Shown: positions 4,508 to 15,964 of the stretch, piece by piece
Position numbering within the stretch: position 1 is the first letter of the stretch
How the letters are laid out: each line of letters starts with the position of its first letter
Source of the DNA: a virus
Length of the DNA stretch: 16,300 bases
Direction: 5' to 3' (one strand)
UHGV virus genome: UHGV-1567883
Notes under the pieces: model-generated
What the model was told of the DNA's origin: nothing
Databases searched by the model: none
Seen by the model: only the letters and a program-made list of their open reading frames with translations
Program-made: the position numbers and the translations under genes

Positions 4508-4897
4508 TCAGGCGGCTGCACCCGCCGGTTTCTCATACTTACTGATAGTGATCTCGACCTTCCCTTTCGGGATAACCGGTCCCCACTCCACCAGCATTCT
4601 TTTCACCTGTCTGTCGTCTTCCCACACACCCGCGTGGGTCAGGGCGTCAAACAGCGCCTTGTTATAGTTGTCCAGATCGCGGATCCGGTTATCCGGAGGA
4701 AACAACACGATCTCCACTGAAGCAGGTGCCGACGTTGGTTTCGGCAGACGACGTAACTGCTCAACTATTGCTGCGCACGCCGCGCTCTGAAATTTTCGCC
4801 CCGCCTCGCTTATCAGGCTCTTACCAGCAAATGCCCCTTTGTTGGGGTGTCGCCAGTACGTGTTCACACTGGGCGGGAAAGGCAGGATCAACTTCAT
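4508..4897 (-). CDS. rusA: Holliday-junction resolvase RusA
   Basis: 129 aa; LPFPPSVNTYWRH ... RDLDNYNKALFDALT ... DD.QV matches RusA signature residues. Start overlaps the upstream stop (ATGA). Confidence 0.85.
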   Translation of the reverse strand: MKLILPFPPSVNTYWRHPNKGAFAGKSLISEAGRKFQSAACAAIVEQLRRLPKPTSAPASVEIVLFPPDNRIRDLDNYNKALFDALTHAGVWEDDRQVKRMLVEWGPVIPKGKVEITISKYEKPAGAAA

Positions 4898-5220
4898 ACT
4901 TTCAGGCCCCTCTCATGTAACCAGTGGGCTGCACGCAGCCTGGCGTTCTCCTCACCGGCAAGCAGTGCGCGGATGATACCGACCGCTTCGCTGTCGTCGT
5001 CCTTCACTGCGGTATGAAGCGTTATCCCCCGGGCCACGCCACGCTTTATCGTGATGACGCCTTTTTTCTCCAGTGCGCGAAGATGCTCCACCGCTGCATT
5101 CACCGAACGGTATCCCAGCATGGTTGCCACCTCCTGATTGGTTGGCGGAAAGCCACGCTCTTGCTGGTAAGAAATCAGCATATCCAGCACCTGCTGCTGG
5201 CATTGAGTTAACGTCGTCAT
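4894..5220 (-). CDS. LexA N-terminal DNA-binding-domain homologue lacking the S24 peptidase domain
   Basis: 108 aa; LTQCQQQVLDMLISYQQERGFPPTNQEVATMLGYRSVNAAVEHLRALEKKGVITIKRGVARGITL aligns motif-for-motif with the LexA winged-helix domain. No Ser/Lys catalytic domain. Translationally coupled (ATGA) to dam upstream and rusA downstream. Confidence 0.7.
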   Translation of the reverse strand: MTTLTQCQQQVLDMLISYQQERGFPPTNQEVATMLGYRSVNAAVEHLRALEKKGVITIKRGVARGITLHTAVKDDDSEAVGIIRALLAGEENARLRAAHWLHERGLKV

Positions 5221-5870
5221 GCCGCCATCTCCCTGACAAGTTTTTCTGCCTGCTGGCGAACCTGCGCCAGAAACGCCTCACCACATGCCTCAAGTTCATC
5301 GCGCCCGATGTAGCTGATTGCCGGTCCCTTCCAGGTCTTGTCGAAAACAGCAATAGCACCAGCGAAGAAAGCGCCTGTCGGCACCTGCTTCTCATCCTTC
5401 GGGATAAACCAGGCAGGCAGTTCAAAACCAATACGCCCGCGAATAAAAGCAATATGGTCCGCATCTTCCGGCCACCACACTTCGCTGGTGGCAGCTTTGA
5501 TCAGGAAAACATAGCGCCCGCCCTTATCACGCATGGCACTGGCATGTTTCATGATGTAACGCATGCCGGTGATGTATTGCCCCTCATGCTGACTGGCGCG
5601 GCTGTATGGGGGATTACCAAAGGCAGCACCTTTAAGCTCCGCAAGACGTTCTGACCAGTCATGCGCCAGCGCGTTGTCTTCCGCCGTGTAATACGCGGCA
5701 CATTTGGCGTTATCACCGTCAGTGAACAGATCCAGAACAAACGGACCAAACAAGGTGTTAATTCCCCAGAAAATGTTGTCCGGCGTGCGCCACTGATCGC
5801 CCACTTCCTTCAGTTCATGGGCTGGTTTGTTCCGCAGTTCTACCAGCGCCTGGCAATATTTATTACTCAT
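5217..5870 (-). CDS. Phage-type DNA N6-adenine methyltransferase (small Dam-like family)
   Basis: 217 aa; FGNPPY catalytic motif; size and layout of the phage N-6-adenine methyltransferase family (compare CPS-53 yfdM). Confidence 0.8.
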   Translation of the reverse strand: MSNKYCQALVELRNKPAHELKEVGDQWRTPDNIFWGINTLFGPFVLDLFTDGDNAKCAAYYTAEDNALAHDWSERLAELKGAAFGNPPYSRASQHEGQYITGMRYIMKHASAMRDKGGRYVFLIKAATSEVWWPEDADHIAFIRGRIGFELPAWFIPKDEKQVPTGAFFAGAIAVFDKTWKGPAISYIGRDELEACGEAFLAQVRQQAEKLVREMAA

Positions 5871-5962
5871 TAAGCCCCCACGTAAAAAGCATCCGCAATG
5901 TCTCCGGAAGTACAGCCCGGATGGGCTTCAATGAATTTCTGAACGTCATTTAACAGACTCAT
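5870..5962 (-). CDS. Unannotated 30-codon ORF translationally coupled between the replication gene and dam
   Basis: ATG at 5962..5960 lies 2 nt after the O-like stop with GGGGG upstream; its TAA overlaps the dam ATG by 1 nt. Peptide MSLLNDVQKFIEAHPGCTSGDIADAFYVGA. Confidence 0.3.
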   Translation of the reverse strand: MSLLNDVQKFIEAHPGCTSGDIADAFYVGA

Positions 5963-5964
5963 GA

Positions 5965-6957
5965 TCACCCCCTGAATCCTGCCGGGATCTGGCTGTAGTC
6001 CACGTTGTCGTAACTGGCTTTGAAGTACGGGTCTTCACGTTTTTCTGTGTGCGTGCTGACGGACGGCGATAAGCGCAGGGAAAGCTCATCCCATTTTTCC
6101 CGCAACTTCGACGGGCTGAGCACGTTACGGCACCAGAACGGATCGCGGCTGACGCGGCTGTACATCTCGCAGATTTGTTTGTGAGTACGACCATCCTGCA
6201 CACACATCAGGCGAATTTCGTTTGCCCATGCTGTCCAGTTCGGTTCTTTGGGACGAACCACCTCGCCGTCACATTCGGCGGCCTGCTCGTACAGGGCGAT
6301 GATTTTTTTCCAGAGCCACTGTGCGCAGGTCAAATCATCCTGCGTTCCCCACTGGCGCTTTTTAGGGCTGAATACAACCGCATCAGGATGGCGAGTTAAA
6401 AACTCCTGTTCAGCCGTTTGCGTGTCCGGTTGCGAAGCGTCCGGACGAGAAGAGGTTTTATTCTCTGTAGTAATCTCTGTTGTATTCTCTGTAAGATCAT
6501 TGGGCCATTTTGACCCGATGACAGCGTGTCGTTTTGAACCAATGGATCGTGTCATTTTGCGCCCATCCATCAGGTCACTTTGACCCGATGGAGAAGTGCA
6601 TTTTGACCTGATGGATTCGTTCACTTTGACCTCTTCTAAAAGCTCACTTTCATAGTTGATCGTGTAGAAGTTGGTCATGTCACGCTTCGATTTATTGAGT
6701 TGCTCGCGACGCAAAACCCCAAGTGATTTCAGGCTTGCAAATGTGCGTTTCAGAGTGGACTCTGACCAGAACGGAAACTGCTCCAGCCACTGTTCTGTCG
6801 TGTTATAAACCCAGCGAATTCCGCCATGCTCAGTGCCTGAATTCGTTTCATTCAGCCAGTAATGAAGCTGCTGCAACACAATTGCCTCATTCAGACCAAT
6901 ACGGCATGCAAGATCACGATTTATCACAATGGGCTGGGATGTCATTAACAGGCTCAT
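5965..6957 (-). CDS. Replication initiator (lambda O-like role) with DnaT-like C-terminal domain; origin iterons inside the coding sequence
   Basis: 330 aa; N-terminal wHTH-like region; internal iterons encode repeated IGSK; the C-terminus ...YSQIPAGFRG resembles the E. coli DnaT C-terminus (...SQIPPGFRG, from recollection). SD GAGG 7 nt upstream of the ATG. Confidence 0.65.
   Translation of the reverse strand: MSLLMTSQPIVINRDLACRIGLNEAIVLQQLHYWLNETNSGTEHGGIRWVYNTTEQWLEQFPFWSESTLKRTFASLKSLGVLRREQLNKSKRDMTNFYTINYESELLEEVKVNESIRSKCTSPSGQSDLMDGRKMTRSIGSKRHAVIGSKWPNDLTENTTEITTENKTSSRPDASQPDTQTAEQEFLTRHPDAVVFSPKKRQWGTQDDLTCAQWLWKKIIALYEQAAECDGEVVRPKEPNWTAWANEIRLMCVQDGRTHKQICEMYSRVSRDPFWCRNVLSPSKLREKWDELSLRLSPSVSTHTEKREDPYFKASYDNVDYSQIPAGFRG
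6457..6494. repeat. Three tandem 12-bp AT-rich repeats (TTCTCTGTA-type) beside the iterons; candidate DNA unwinding element
   Basis: TTCTCTGTA at 6461, ATCTCTGTT at 6473, TTCTCTGTA at 6485 (12-bp period), inside the O-like gene. Confidence 0.55.
6506..6660. repeat. Iteron array (candidate phage origin of replication): 6-7 direct repeats, 23-24 bp period
   Basis: CATTTTGACCCGATGA 6506, CGTTTTGAACCAATGGA 6530, CATTTTGCGCCCATCCA 6553, CACTTTGACCCGATGGA 6576, CATTTTGACCTGATGGA 6599, CACTTTGACCTC 6622, degenerate CACTTTCAT 6645. Confidence 0.7.
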
Positions 6958-7126
6958 GACCGACCTCTATTTCCCTGAATTTACGACGAAACTGTTCGAG
7001 CGGACTGAAGCATTCATGTTCATAGCCTTCACGGAGGTAGATAACCCGTTGTGTTTCCGGCTCCCAACGAATGACTCTGACGGGCACTCCGTAGTGATCT
7101 TTGAACCAGCGGTTAACTTGTCGCAA
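6914..7126 (-). CDS. Small phage protein, DUF4222-like; TTG start with strong SD
   Basis: 70 aa; AAGGAG 8 nt upstream of the TTG; ...[30 protein letters not shown]... resembles DUF4222 proteins (recollection). Overlaps the O start by 44 nt and the 6967..7305 ORF in another frame. Confidence 0.45.
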
Positions 7127-7305
7127 AGGACTGTCTCCTTCTGCCGGTTGAAATCACCCACAGCCCACTCTGCAAAGCTGTGGGTTACAATTTCCCTGTC
7201 ACCTGGTACATTCACTGCATAGCAATACTCCACCTTCGCTTTTCCACCCGGTACAGGAAGCGCAATCAGTTGCGAGCGACGGTAGTGTGTTGTTAAACTG
7301 TTCAT
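6967..7305 (-). CDS. Hypothetical protein; conflicts with the overlapping 70-aa ORF
   Basis: 112 aa; ATG overlaps the upstream stop (ATGA) and its stop sits just before the O-gene SD, which is good operon geometry, but 160 nt overlap the 6914..7126 ORF. Confidence 0.4.
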
Positions 7306-7886
7306 GCGTTAGTTTCTCCACAACCAGAAGCAATCGACGCCACGACGCCCGGAGCTGCACACTCGCGGGCGTTACTCTTTTCCGGCGCACAAAAAACACG
7401 AAATAACAGTGTTAAATGCTCCTGCCACTTCGCCATTACTTGGTAGCTGTTCTCTTCGATTTGCTCACGCTCAGCCTGGTCAATAACTCCATCAGCAGTT
7501 GCCTTGCGTAAGTACTGGGAATGCTTGCCAATCCATTCTATTGACTCCATCAGCCGCTGATTAATGTCACCATTGTCAATGTCATCAATGACCACCAGCG
7601 GCACAAACACCCCATTACTACGACGGGCTATTGCATCTGTTACATGCCTGGTACCACTGGCATCCTGTAAAACCATGGCCCACTCAAGTGGAAAAATTTG
7701 ATCCCCACCGCTACGCAGTCTGTTATGCAATTGATCTTTTGCTGGGGTGATATCATCAGATTTATACAAACCAAGAATTTCTGCTGCTTCCTCATAGCCA
7801 TGAGGTAAATCAGCAATCGTTCTTCGTATTGCTGCCACCAGCCATGCTGGTTGTTTATCAACTTTCCATTCAGGTTCTTTACCCAC
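7302..7886 (-). CDS. Regulatory protein at the cII position (CII/CP76-like or YdaT-like; family uncertain)
   Basis: 194 aa; GTG start with GAGGAA 8 nt upstream; immediately downstream of the cro-like gene. Confidence 0.45.
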
Positions 7887-7913
7887 GGTTAATTCCTCAT
7901 TTCTGTGGTGTTT

Positions 7914-8111
7914 TTATGCCGCAGCACTGTTAGTCTTTTGATATAAAGACACGTCAACTTTCAGTTTCCCGTTAGTAATTTTTTCTAACTGGTACGCTCG
8001 GCCTTCAGGAATAATCTCAGGCCACTCTGAAACAGACGGATGCTTAATACCTAGGGCTTCGGCGGTTTTACAAACTCCGCCGAAATAATTAATCACGTCG
8101 GATTTCCGCAT
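7914..8111 (-). CDS. Cro-like repressor (YdaS/Cro family)
   Basis: 65 aa, divergent from the cI-like gene; GGGAGA SD upstream of the ATG; first gene of the minus-strand operon from the PR-like promoter. Confidence 0.7.
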   Translation of the reverse strand: MRKSDVINYFGGVCKTAEALGIKHPSVSEWPEIIPEGRAYQLEKITNGKLKVDVSLYQKTNSAAA

Positions 8112-8142
8112 TTCTGTCTCCCGTTAAATTACGTCAAGCAGG

Positions 8143-8208
8143 AATGTAGGATATCCAACATGCCAATGTCAAGAATCCTACATTGGCATGTGGTAGGATT
8201 GCCTACAT
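8143..8208. promoter_or_regulatory. OR-like region: three 18-bp operator repeats plus PR-like promoter
   Basis: ATGTAGGATATCCAACAT 8144-8161; degenerate site 8166-8183 with perfect right half ATCCTACAT; TGGTAGGATTGCCTACAT 8191-8208. Minus-strand TTGACA (8172..8167), 18-nt spacer, TACATT (8148..8143) reading toward cro. Confidence 0.6.
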
Positions 8209-8860
8209 GATGAACATGAGTGATCGTATTCGCCAAAGGCGAAAAGAACTGAACCTGACACAACAAGCACTGGCTGATTTGACTGGTGTGAACCGTGTCA
8301 CGGTTACTGGATGGGAAAAGGACGACTACCAACCAAATGGAGCCAACCTTCAAGCCCTAGCCAACGCACTTAAATGCGATCCTCTGTGGCTTGTTAGCGG
8401 AAAAGGCTCGCCTGAACCAAAGATAAATCTAAAACCTGAAATATTCGCAGTTAAAAAAGTCCCCCTCATCTCGTGGGTTCAGGCGGGTTCATGGACAATG
8501 ACGGAGCCTGGTGTCAGGAAAGAAGATGCTGAAGAGTGGGTTTATACTACCGCCCTTGTATCAGAAATGGCATTTGCACTACGGGTCCGTGGTGATTCAA
8601 TGACCAATCCCCTCGGCTCACCATCGATACCAGAAGGTTCTATCGTTATCGTAGAGCCAGATATTATTGATACAGAGTGTATTAACGGAAAAATCGTTGT
8701 TGCCCATATCAATGGTGGGCAAGAAGCGACACTCAAAAAATTTGTTGAGGACTGGCCGAACAGGTATCTCGTCCCACTAAATCCTAACTATAAAACTATT
8801 GAATGCGGTGAGAACTGCAGAATAGTTGGTCTTGTCAAACAAGTAATAATGGATTTTTGA
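8207..8860 (+). CDS. CI-like prophage repressor (HTH_XRE N-terminus, S24 LexA-like autopeptidase C-terminus)
   Basis: HTH LNLTQQALADLTGVNRVTVTGWE; Ala-Gly cleavage site in VQAGSW; catalytic Ser in GDSM and Lys in ATLKK. The track start at 8183 is probably too long; ATGs at 8207/8210/8216 follow AGGA. Confidence 0.85.
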   Translation: MMNMSDRIRQRRKELNLTQQALADLTGVNRVTVTGWEKDDYQPNGANLQALANALKCDPLWLVSGKGSPEPKINLKPEIFAVKKVPLISWVQAGSWTMTEPGVRKEDAEEWVYTTALVSEMAFALRVRGDSMTNPLGSPSIPEGSIVIVEPDIIDTECINGKIVVAHINGGQEATLKKFVEDWPNRYLVPLNPNYKTIECGENCRIVGLVKQVIMDF

Positions 8861-13192: not shown

Positions 13193-13250
13193 TCCAAGCA
13201 TGAAACTATTGGCCACAATTTGTGGCCATTTTACGGAGCAAGATAGAAAC

Positions 13251-14984
13251 ATGGCAAATCAAATTACCAAACTAAAAAATATAAATGTTGTGAAGTTTCG
13301 CGGACTGAAAAATATAAACATCGAGTTTGGTTCTCGCCTAACTGTTATTTGTGGTAAAAATGGCACATCTAAATCCACAATTCTTGGCATTATCGCCCAA
13401 ATATTTAGCTTTACAAAGGACTTTACCAAAAACCCTGAGACTGATTTAACACAATATAAAACATTAACAAATGGCAGCTTCAAGTCAGCTTTCAGCGAAC
13501 ATTTTAGGCTTTCAGAACAATTTGATGTTCCTGGTTCAATGGACGTCAAAATTAGTGTCTATGATGGTGCATCGAACAAACATCTTGAAAAACTAACATT
13601 AGGTTTATACAGCTACAGTGACAGAGATAAATCTAGGCCTGTAGTCAGGGGAAATGATTCAATACCGGAAAAAAACCAAAGTAGAAACGTTACTCATCCT
13701 GTTATTTTTTTAAGCTTAGCACGACTTCTTCCTATTACATTAAGGACTGATTACTCAACACGGGATGTTCAGTACATCAATGAAAATTCTGATGAAATCA
13801 GAATGATGAGTAACCAACTCTTACTAAAAAACAATGGAAGCTCAGTAACAGCAACAAAAGGTACTATCGATTCAATGGTTGTCCATGGTGACAATTATGA
13901 TCACCAATCAGTATCTGTTGGTGAAGATAATGTTGGACAATTAATCCAGGCAATTTTTTCATTTAAAAGATTGAAGGAAACTTATTCTGATTATCATGGC
14001 GGAATATTGTTAATTGATGAAGCCGATGCAGGTCTTTTCCCTGCGGCACAGTTAGAGCTAATTAATATTCTAACTAAAGCAGCAAAACAATACGATCTGC
14101 AAATAATCATGACCTCGCACTCTCCATTAATAATAGAGGATATCTATAATCGTTCAAAACAAGATAGTGATAGCTTTAAAACAATATATCTTACAGACAC
14201 ATATGGAGATATTAAAACAAAGAATAATCTTTCATGGACAGATATCCACGCTGATTTACATGTTGAAACTGTAAAAATTAATGATGACATTTGTCTTCCA
14301 AAGGCAAATGTATATTTTGAAGACAAAGAAGGTTTCGACTTTTTCAAACAATTGATAACAGATCGAAAAATAAATAAAATATTAAATCCATTAGGAAATA
14401 TAAATATTAGCTGCTCTGCCATGCTTGACTTAATGGCAAGAAAAATACCAGAATTTACAGCTAAAAGCTTGATCGTCTTAGACGGTGATGTTGTTCACGA
14501 CAACAGTGCTAATGCAAAAAAAGCCAAAAAAGAAAAAAACTTATGTTTGCTTCCAAGCACCTTACCTCCAGACCAAATGATTTTTGAGTTTTTATATAAT
14601 TTACCACCTGATGATGCATATTGGGAAAATAAAAATAAATTTACAAAAGCTGTTTTTATGAAAACAGCTAAAGACATAATTGCAACGCTAAAGATTGGTA
14701 ACGCTCCGATTGATTTAAAAATCCTTATAGATAATTATAAAAAAGTTAACAAAAACCATGGAGGGAGAGTTAGAAAACTGTTTAAAGATTTTGCACATAC
14801 GACTCAATTTCAGGCCCAAGTCAAAGGAAGAGTTAAAGATAACCCATATCGATATTGGGTCGAGAAAAATCCTGTTCAATCGGATAGCTTCAAGAATGAA
14901 CTAATAAAGAGTCTTAAAGTTATTATGATAAGTGGACATGGTGTCGATTCTGCTACCATCTCATCATATCTGTCAGATAACTAA
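13251..14984 (+). CDS. OLD-family-like nuclease candidate: N-terminal ABC-type ATPase plus C-terminal TOPRIM-like domain
   Basis: Walker A CGKNGTSKST (nt 13350-13379), Walker B/D-loop ILLIDEAD (14014-14028), H-loop TSHSP (14112-14126), TOPRIM-like EGFD (14328-14339) and LIVLDGD (DxD at 14481-14489). The gene is visibly AT-rich. Alternative start at 13200. Confidence 0.7.
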   Translation: MANQITKLKNINVVKFRGLKNINIEFGSRLTVICGKNGTSKSTILGIIAQIFSFTKDFTKNPETDLTQYKTLTNGSFKSAFSEHFRLSEQFDVPGSMDVKISVYDGASNKHLEKLTLGLYSYSDRDKSRPVVRGNDSIPEKNQSRNVTHPVIFLSLARLLPITLRTDYSTRDVQYINENSDEIRMMSNQLLLKNNGSSVTATKGTIDSMVVHGDNYDHQSVSVGEDNVGQLIQAIFSFKRLKETYSDYHGGILLIDEADAGLFPAAQLELINILTKAAKQYDLQIIMTSHSPLIIEDIYNRSKQDSDSFKTIYLTDTYGDIKTKNNLSWTDIHADLHVETVKINDDICLPKANVYFEDKEGFDFFKQLITDRKINKILNPLGNINISCSAMLDLMARKIPEFTAKSLIVLDGDVVHDNSANAKKAKKEKNLCLLPSTLPPDQMIFEFLYNLPPDDAYWENKNKFTKAVFMKTAKDIIATLKIGNAPIDLKILIDNYKKVNKNHGGRVRKLFKDFAHTTQFQAQVKGRVKDNPYRYWVEKNPVQSDSFKNELIKSLKVIMISGHGVDSATISSYLSDN

Positions 14985-14996
14985 TTGATTAAAAAA

Positions 14997-15030
14997 GGGT
15001 TTTATGTGATGGCCATAAAGCCCTTTTTTT
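14997..15030 (+). terminator. Strong intrinsic terminator between the OLD-like gene and the Dam-family MTase gene
   Basis: 10-bp stem GGGTTTTATG / CATAAAGCCC (one G-U pair), 7-nt loop, then a 7-T run. Confidence 0.75.
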
Positions 15031-15064
15031 GATATACTTTAGATCTGACATTTAGAGGTATCAT
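15029..15064 (+). promoter_or_regulatory. Candidate extended -10 promoter and SD of the Dam-family MTase gene, overlapping a GATC
   Basis: TGaTATACT extended -10 (15030-15038); AGATCT with GATC at 15042-15045 near the predicted start; SD AGAGG 15054-15058; ATG 15065. Confidence 0.35.
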
Positions 15065-15964
15065 ATGCGTTTTAACACCCCACTTCGCTATCCTGGCGGT
15101 AAAGGCAAGCTTGCAAATTTCATGCTTCGGATTATTGAAGAAAATAATCTTTCGCCTATACATTATGCCGAACCATATGCTGGGGGTGCTGGTTTAGCAT
15201 TGAAACTGTTACATCTAAATGCAGCTGAAAAAATCATCCTTAATGATATTAATATTTCTGTTTATGCTTTTTGGCACAGTGTATTAAATCATGCAGATCA
15301 ATTATGTTCTTTAATTGAAAGAACAGAAGTTACAATGGATGAATGGTTTAGGCAGAAAGATATAATTAATAATCCTAAAGACCATGATCTTTTAACAATT
15401 GGTTTCTCAACCTTTTTTCTCAATAGAACAAATCGTTCTGGAATATTAAAAGGTGGAGTAATTGGCGGTAAAAATCAAGAAGGGAAATGGAAGCTTGACG
15501 CTCGCTATAATAAGAGTGATTTGATTTCTCGAATCCATAAAATATCAGAAAATCGTCACAGAATAGATTTATATAACATGGATGCAATTGATTTCATTAA
15601 AAAAATAGTTACTCAATTGCCACAAAACTCATTAACATATTTGGATCCACCTTATTACATAAAAGGTAAAGGTTTATATATCAACCATTATGATCATGAT
15701 GATCATGTTAGGGTTGCAAAAGTCGTACAGAATAATATTAAAACACCTTGGATTGTTTCTTACGATAACACTCCTGAGATCCAAGCTATGTATAAGACAT
15801 CATCATTAGTATATGGAATAAACTACAGTGCTCAAGATCGGTACAAAGGATCTGAGGTAATGTTCTTCAGTGAACGATTGAAAATCTTTAAAACAGATGA
15901 TCCAACTAAGGTAAAAGCGCCTGTATTTAAAAGAGGATGTGTTGACGACCACATCCAGACATAA
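15065..15964 (+). CDS. Dam-family (D12 class) DNA N6-adenine methyltransferase
   Basis: 299 aa; aligns by motif to E. coli Dam: PGGK near the N-terminus, SAM motif EPYAGGAG, NRTNRSG region, catalytic DPPY. AT-rich. Confidence 0.85.
   Translation: MRFNTPLRYPGGKGKLANFMLRIIEENNLSPIHYAEPYAGGAGLALKLLHLNAAEKIILNDINISVYAFWHSVLNHADQLCSLIERTEVTMDEWFRQKDIINNPKDHDLLTIGFSTFFLNRTNRSGILKGGVIGGKNQEGKWKLDARYNKSDLISRIHKISENRHRIDLYNMDAIDFIKKIVTQLPQNSLTYLDPPYYIKGKGLYINHYDHDDHVRVAKVVQNNIKTPWIVSYDNTPEIQAMYKTSSLVYGINYSAQDRYKGSEVMFFSERLKIFKTDDPTKVKAPVFKRGCVDDHIQT

Follow-up and report, generated by a model that had tools for sequence, protein, structure and literature searches.

Bacteriophage lambda O is an origin-binding initiator, the gene for which follows cII in the early-right operon and contains the iterons of the origin in the segment that encodes the linker of the protein. 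O ends in a tail with the residues NTDW and is accompanied by the loader gene P. Escherichia coli DnaT (primosomal protein i) is a host protein assigned to the loading of DnaB; it comprises an N-terminal domain, an acidic linker, a three-helix domain and a short tail, and is targeted by PriA and PriB. The subject of this analysis is the replication initiator gene of a lambdoid prophage, located in a stretch of viral DNA of 16,300 nucleotides (UHGV virus genome UHGV-1567883; the whole of this stretch is called the window). The initiator is like lambda O in that it is an origin-binding initiator (by proposal) with iterons in the linker-coding segment of its own gene, in its position after cII, and in having a homologous C-terminal domain; but it has a DnaT-type tail in place of NTDW, and there is no P gene. 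It is like DnaT in that the last 9–12 residues are nearly identical, a tail of about 20 residues can be aligned via intermediate phage variants, and both proteins are assigned to the loading of DnaB (a role that is proposed for the initiator). Unlike DnaT, the initiator is without the N-terminal domain, the acidic linker and the three-helix domain, and it would be targeted by sequence-specific binding to an origin rather than by PriA and PriB.

Other modules with initiators that end in an IPxGFRG tail are those of Rac (YdaU–YdaV), Gifsy-2 (O and a DnaC-like protein) and phage 75/02 (gp15–gp16). These have their own DnaC homologue directly downstream of the initiator, whereas the module in the window encodes no such homologue and has to depend on the DnaC of the host. 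The CPS-53 (KpLE1) element of E. coli K-12 presumably carries, in its yfdO/yfdN region, what is left of a module of the type found in the window; in some genomes the gene after the window-type initiator is named yfdN or PerC family by the Prokaryotic Genome Annotation Pipeline (PGAP). By analogy only, the tail can be likened to that at the C-terminus of SSB (DDDIPF), a short, flexible, acidic-then-hydrophobic docking tag for partners in replication and repair, although the sequence differs and the DnaT-type motif can lie short of the very C-terminus. The initiator gene itself is of a known, annotated type and is not new. What appears to be new is that the tail is portable and that it is strictly linked to the type of helicase loader.

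An O-type initiator with the tail of DnaT

The C-terminus of the initiator reads ...YDNVDYSQIPAGFRG. In a BLASTP comparison with DnaT of E. coli K-12 (from NC_000913), SQIPAGFRG of the initiator aligned with SQIPPGFRG of DnaT, 8 of the 9 residues being identical and both segments being the exact C-termini of their proteins (pairwise E 0.008). The original prediction had given the end of DnaT correctly. The likeness that it had drawn is real by this alignment and also by a hidden Markov model (HMM) of 54 distinct DnaT tails from enterobacteria: when all 377 six-frame open reading frames (ORFs) of the window were searched with this model, the sole match was the initiator ORF (E 0.001; next best, 3.4). 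Across the Enterobacteriaceae, the DnaT tail is nearly invariant, with the pattern [KR]RD[VIL]NxxS[EQ]PDxxIPxGFRG. Phages HannyBb and mEp460_ev081 have initiators that are homologous in the body to that of the window; these end in ...VNHISEPDTEIPPGFRG, in which 13 of 17 positions agree with the DnaT tail, and further variants (e.g. REDPMFKSKYECDTRIPEGFRG and KHDPMKFGPVDTKIPEGFRG) bridge the window-type and the DnaT-type tails. Some variants run past the motif (GFRGAK, GFRGANS), which implies that the motif need not be at the extreme C-terminus. In one protein with the lambda-O C-terminal domain (P0187), the tail contains two copies of the motif (…YSIPKGFRG…ETEIPHGFRG).

The likeness to DnaT is limited to this tail of about 20 residues. 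Outside the tail, BLASTP against DnaT found nothing that corresponds to the N-terminal oligomerisation domain or to the acidic PriB-binding linker; the three-helix C-terminal domain of DnaT, which binds single-stranded DNA (PF17948), is absent from the initiator, and comparison of the C-terminal domain with DnaT by hhalign gave no similarity. Phage_rep_O (PF04492), an N-terminal domain that binds DNA, was tested on the initiator and is also absent. A structure model, made with AlphaFold2 on an alignment of 88 sequences (mean predicted local distance difference test score, pLDDT, 79), has a winged-helix N-terminal domain, a disordered linker (amino acids 120–175) and a well-predicted C-terminal domain, followed by a region of low confidence (amino acids 300–330; pLDDT about 55 for amino acids 300–320) that is consistent with disorder. 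A phmmer search with amino acids 186–330 found 2695 relatives at E<=1e-3 among 1.84 billion cluster representatives; for one of these (P0164, E 1e-23) the protein matches Pfam Phage_rep_O, and Phage_lambda_P follows downstream. The folded C-terminal domain is that of lambda O, and not the three-helix domain of DnaT. The "DnaT-like C-terminal region" of the original prediction can be kept for the tail, but not for the folded domain that precedes it.

The whole protein matches PHROG 391 ("replication initiation O-like") from end to end (E 1e-101), and searches of Pfam, NCBIfam and PDB sequences gave no significant match. Existing annotations call it either "Primosomal protein I" (RAST-style) or "replication protein O". 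By megablast, the gene has 98% nucleotide identity with the "Primosomal protein I" gene of phage mEp460_4F5 and is carried, at >=80% coverage, by 1057 of 5426 complete E. coli genomes. It encodes the single replication protein of the lambdoid prophage.

Within the ORF of the initiator are direct repeats with a period of 23 bp and the core CAyTTTGACCyGATG. Five copies were located by repeat finding (direct-repeat families plus an inverted pair) and a sixth can be read in register at 6614–6636, so that the claim of origin iterons inside the replication gene, as in lambda O, stands. These iterons sit in the sequence that codes for the disordered linker (pLDDT <50 for amino acids 120–160). A shorter repeat beside them (6455–6493) is, by analogy with the lambda origin, a candidate unwinding region.

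Tail type and loader type

The tail is found on at least 10 unrelated initiator architectures, two plasmid Rep families among them (Table 1), further bearers having been located by tblastn with tail sequences. As an example, the "O" proteins of Stx2a_1447, SfV and ST64B are unrelated to the initiator in the window except for the last 25 residues. The tail is a portable short linear motif. When one genome per bacterial species was scanned, tails at the end of sizeable ORFs were confined to Enterobacterales, the order to which E. coli with its dnaT–dnaC operon belongs, apart from two contigs of metagenome-assembled genomes (L352 and L374; one of Bacillota, one of Geobacteraceae) that encode tail-bearing initiators of the type found in enterobacterial phages and that are likely to be the result of mis-binning or contamination; the other 13 or so matches were in tiny ORFs, in a number of the order expected by chance. 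When 44-residue C-termini were used for a profile search of a database of 5.8 billion proteins, the matches were for the most part fragments of genes, and no architecture of use came out. The initiators of the Serratia and IncX6 plasmids are each followed by a gene for a homologous membrane-type protein of about 150 amino acids that starts M..IYQFPQG.

The genes beside such initiators were surveyed by an unbiased scan of viral contigs with the DNA pattern for D-[S/T]-x-I-P-x-G-F-R-G-stop. This gave 120 loci, in 117 of which the match was a real ORF end with coherent upstream sequence, and the proteins fell into 12 body clusters. Where there was enough downstream sequence (101 loci), the next gene was DnaC-like in 52, of neither loader type in 49, and lambda P in none; P-like sequence was absent from all 120 tail-bearing loci. 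The genes of neither type include (by seed matches) Ren/DUF977-like, DUF1064, DUF1627 and yfdN-like genes. The unmatched remainder was considered as a source of helicases and rejected, as the sequences, judged by eye, resemble Dam-type and other methyltransferases, a RuvC-like resolvase and small helix-turn-helix (HTH) proteins. A DUF1627 (YdaW-like) gene often follows either the DnaC-like gene or the tail-bearing initiator, with tblastn matches in 46 of the 120 loci.

The converse comparison gave the same picture: none of 74 genes directly upstream of lambda-P homologues (loci L229–L308) bears the IPxGFRG tail, and about 72 of them end instead in ...D[FLW]xNTDW[IA]xG[VL]... This NTDW tail is a candidate for the peptide by which lambda O docks to P, and no description of it in that capacity was found. 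The same division is seen among proteins that share the lambda-O C-terminal domain and were sampled from different 50%-identity clusters: Phage_lambda_P is next to all four without the DnaT-type tail (P0164, P0135, P0146 and P0185) and to none of the three with it (P0141, P0167 and P0183). In particular, P0135, from a module that otherwise resembles that of the window closely, ends in a "HWNSAEAWENTL" tail and is accompanied by a P gene.

A tail-bearing initiator followed by a DnaC-like gene is the arrangement in Rac (ydaU–ydaV), Gifsy-2, Shigella phage 75/02, SPN3UB and vB_EcoS-683R6, and it is the same order as that of dnaT and dnaC in the host. The DnaC-like proteins in these positions are 48–50% identical to E. 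coli DnaC, and residue A84 is invariant in them; A84 is the site of dnaC1331, a mutation that specifically blocks the PriA/PriB pathway (PMC11087952). Among isolated phages, the tail-bearing initiator is without an annotated loader in mEp390, SfV, SfIV, ST64B, SPN1S, HannyBb and Tritos.

The module in the window belongs with the latter group. The original prediction had described a short ORF and then dam after the initiator, with no P- or DnaC-like loader gene adjacent, which is what is present, the ORF having 32 codons. When the substantial ORFs of the window were scanned against Pfam and PHROG, no lambda-P (PF06992), DnaC/IstB (PF01695) or DnaB-like gene was found between cro and Q, and a loader hidden elsewhere in the window was sought among the same ORFs without success. 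As there is no helicase-loader gene in the module, the initiator must use a host route of loading. The 32-codon ORF was considered as a small replication factor and dismissed, being a deletion remnant: in a pairwise alignment with mEp460_4F5, the 98%-identical initiator of that phage precedes an intact gene for a protein of 163 amino acids, which is yfdN/PerC-like and matches PF06069 (PerC). This gene starts within a few bases of the stop codon of the initiator, to which it is translationally coupled. Among 80 relatives of the initiator, 65 keep the full yfdN/PerC-like gene and 4 have the same remnant.

What the tail may recruit

With good confidence, the tail can be regarded as a peptide that docks a replication factor of the host. 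It is somewhat better than an even chance that, more specifically, the initiator mimics the tail of DnaT and thereby docks the host DnaB–DnaC complex at the origin, rather than recruiting PriA, PriB and DnaT. From the co-occurrence of genes, we infer that the partner of the tail is DnaC or the DnaB–DnaC complex. Mimicry of DnaT is preferred over recruitment of DnaT because the tail occurs beside phage DnaC homologues, in the dnaT–dnaC order, and never with lambda P. According to this proposal, the winged-helix N-terminal domain would bind the 23-bp iterons inside its own coding sequence, and the tails of the initiators assembled on the origin would capture host DnaB6–DnaC6 (or, where a relative has a phage-encoded DnaC homologue, that homologue instead). 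The helicase would be loaded onto the unwound origin with neither a phage loader nor PriA, PriB and DnaT, the initiator acting as an origin-specific mimic of the recruiting end of DnaT. The C-terminal tails of O-type proteins would then be interchangeable adaptors that name the loader: NTDW for lambda P, and IPxGFRG for a DnaC-type loader of phage or host. In DnaT, the tail is highly flexible (PMC5778457), and models of the preprimosome used the unit of residues 84–153 from 4OU7, which leaves the tail outside the built model (PMC13377028); thus, the tail is plausibly free for the next factor.

Several points weigh against capture of DnaB–DnaC by the tail. No contact between DnaT and DnaC is documented (PMC5778457, PMC11087952), and in the paper on the preprimosome structure it is the N-terminal domain of DnaT that is favoured as the recruiter of DnaB/DnaC (PMC13377028). 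The contact could be with DnaB instead of DnaC, two partners that the data do not separate. The loci counted above are not phylogenetically independent, as they comprise 12 body clusters and many near-identical prophages. Furthermore, the variant of the tail in the window (RED...DYSQIPAGFRG) is found only in loader-less modules, almost always beside a yfdN/PerC-like gene, so that its link to DnaC rests on the shared core motif and the intermediate tails.

The alternative that fares best, although it is unlikely, is that the tail recruits the restart primosome of the host, either by binding PriA or PriB or by assembling together with DnaT, which then loads DnaB. The tail is, after all, that of DnaT itself, and some plasmids, such as pBR322, depend on DnaT (PMC4129139). 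Also, DnaT 1–161 forms dimers and not trimers, the C-terminal end aiding self-association (PMC5778457), from which it follows that the tail might engage DnaT, as would suit the reading of the original prediction. The original prediction had favoured recruitment of a PriA/PriB/DnaT-type primosome, and here it was not borne out: the initiator has neither the three-helix C-terminal domain, through which DnaT contacts PriA, nor the acidic linker, through which it contacts PriB (PMC13377028), only the tail is common to the two proteins, and this tail is absent from the model of the PriA/PriB/DnaT complex. Neither the adjacency to phage DnaC homologues nor the exclusion from lambda-P modules is predicted by such recruitment.

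It is improbable that the tail is instead an element for binding nucleic acid or for self-association, which raises co-operative binding to single-stranded DNA or oligomerisation. DnaT 84–179 does bind dT30 about twice as strongly as DnaT 84–153, and with more co-operativity (PMC4132743). However, the tail is acidic just ahead of its core (EPD, DNVD) and is present on at least 10 unrelated folds, and the strict either/or relation with the tail associated with lambda P is hard to explain by generic binding to DNA.

Slightly less probable again is that the coupled yfdN/PerC-like protein is a dedicated partner of the initiator, in which case the prophage in the window, having only the 32-codon remnant, would be defective in replication. 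In favour of this, all 80 of the close relatives carry the yfdN-like gene or a remnant of it directly after the initiator, with its start within a few bases of the initiator stop. Set against it are the presence of the tail without a yfdN-like gene in mEp390, HannyBb, SPN1S, Tritos, the DnaC-linked modules and two plasmids, the match of the protein to a family of transcription activators (PF06069), and the occurrence of the deleted form, with 100% identity, in numerous strains of E. coli whose hosts differ. Chance likeness of a few terminal residues without function, for which the pairwise E of only 0.008 over nine residues could be cited, has a negligible probability and is effectively refuted by the recurrence of the motif at the exact C-terminus of many unrelated initiators, by its being the only match to the DnaT-tail HMM in the window, and by the 117 real ORF ends among the 120 matches in viral contigs.

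If capture of DnaB–DnaC is extended from the initiator to DnaT, the tail of the host protein (…PDxxIPxGFRG) would be the missing element that recruits DnaB–DnaC to the restart preprimosome, and initiators of phages and plasmids of Enterobacterales would repeatedly have acquired it as a tag meaning "load helicase here", while lambda-type initiators use NTDW for lambda P. This wider proposal is put forward tentatively, with the chances a little under even. A corollary is that the dnaT–dnaC operon of the host may be a domesticated phage cassette, consisting of a fragment of a tail-bearing initiator and a DnaC-like loader; the idea comes from SPN1S gp46, which has a whole DnaT domain plus the tail, and from the phage cassettes in the dnaT–dnaC order. 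The dnaC gene is regarded as being of phage descent (PMC5109545; dnaT is not mentioned there).

Literature searches on the motif, the function of the DnaT tail, YdaU/YdaV and "initiator-only" lambdoid modules found nothing relevant. In a preprimosome paper of 2026, the recruitment of DnaB/DnaC "remains unknown" and the N-terminal domain of DnaT is suggested for it (PMC13377028); a paper on PriA from September 2026 added nothing on this recruitment, and, by the account of work on the "Eru" replication types of Shiga toxin (Stx) phages, the proteins that replicate those phages are not known. A peptide of 10–20 residues common to DnaT and to unrelated initiators of mobile elements makes for a precise and cheaply testable hypothesis, in which the peptide itself is the reagent. 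If true, it would explain the replication of the very common "initiator-only" lambdoid modules (for the gene in the window alone, roughly one complete E. coli genome in five has such a module, as do SfV-like and several Stx phages), would account for the way in which the helicase of the host is engaged by some Rep3-family and IncX6 plasmids, and would identify the element by which DnaT recruits DnaB/DnaC.

The module and its surroundings

The window is a lambdoid prophage in which int and xis, and then the early-left genes, are on the plus strand. The immunity and early-right control region was identified from Pfam and PHROG matches. After the cII-like gene come two small ORFs, the initiator, the 32-codon ORF, dam, a gene for a protein with the LexA DNA-binding domain, RusA, a KilA-N protein, DUF968/HNH and Q.

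Table 1. Features of the initiator and its module, and initiator architectures that bear the tail (positions are those of the window, except where a locus number precedes them)
Feature	Position	Strand	Remarks
Replication initiator gene	5965–6957	minus	Single 330-codon ORF, 330 amino acids, lambda-O-type
N-terminal winged-helix domain, amino acids 14–118	6604–6918	minus	AlphaFold2 model; origin-binding by proposal
Lambda-O-type C-terminal domain, amino acids 179–297	6067–6423	minus	Helical, one beta hairpin; AlphaFold2 pLDDT >92
C-terminal tail REDPYFKASYDNVDYSQIPAGFRG, amino acids 307–330	5968–6039	minus	Core DYSQIPAGFRG at 5968–6000
Origin iterons	6498–6636	none	Five to six 23-bp direct repeats; coding for amino acids about 107–153
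Short repeat TTCTCTGTA	6455–6493	none	GTTkTATTCTCTGTA, two copies 24 bp apart; flanks iterons
32-codon ORF	5870–5968	minus	In-frame 396-bp deletion remnant of a 163/164-amino-acid yfdN/PerC-like gene
Dam-type N6-adenine methyltransferase	5217–5870	minus	PF05869, E 1e-45; next intact gene; not a replication-loading factor
Immunity/early-right control region	7302–8860		Upstream of initiator
cII-like	7302–7886	minus	
cro	7914–8111	minus	
cI	8183–8860	plus	
Tail bearer: window-type body			Winged-helix + lambda-O C-terminal domain
Tail bearer: SfIV gp41			HTH_36 + lambda-O C-terminal domain; N-terminal domain differs from window protein, C-terminal half same
Tail bearer: SfV/Stx2a_1447/ST64B type			HTH_36 + different C-terminal domain
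Tail bearer: Shigella phage 75/02 gp15			
Tail bearer: mEp390 gp42			Phg_2220_C
Tail bearer: Gifsy-2 O homologue			Phage_rep_O
Tail bearer: Rac YdaU			
Tail bearer: SPN1S gp46 (Salmonella phage)	L101:2248–3063		Complete DnaT domain PF17948 + tail
Tail bearer: Serratia plasmid initiator	L103:1625–3025		Rep3 family
Tail bearer: IncX6 RepA (pGN2-KPC)	L104:1–1486		PF10134

The two small ORFs just upstream of the initiator (6914–7126 and 6967–7305, both on the minus strand) overlap by about 160 nucleotides in different frames, and each strongly matches a family, DUF4222 (PF13973, E 1.5e-18) in one case and phrog_1170 (E 1e-69) in the other. The protein with the LexA DNA-binding domain (4894–5220, minus strand; 108 amino acids) has this domain alone, with no peptidase domain, and is conserved in the nin-like region of SfV, mEp460 and Stx phages. 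Directly past the integrase gene, at 13200–15964 on the plus strand, are genes for an AAA_15/AAA_21 ATPase of 594 amino acids and a D12-class adenine methyltransferase, which may be defence or moron cargo at the end of the prophage.

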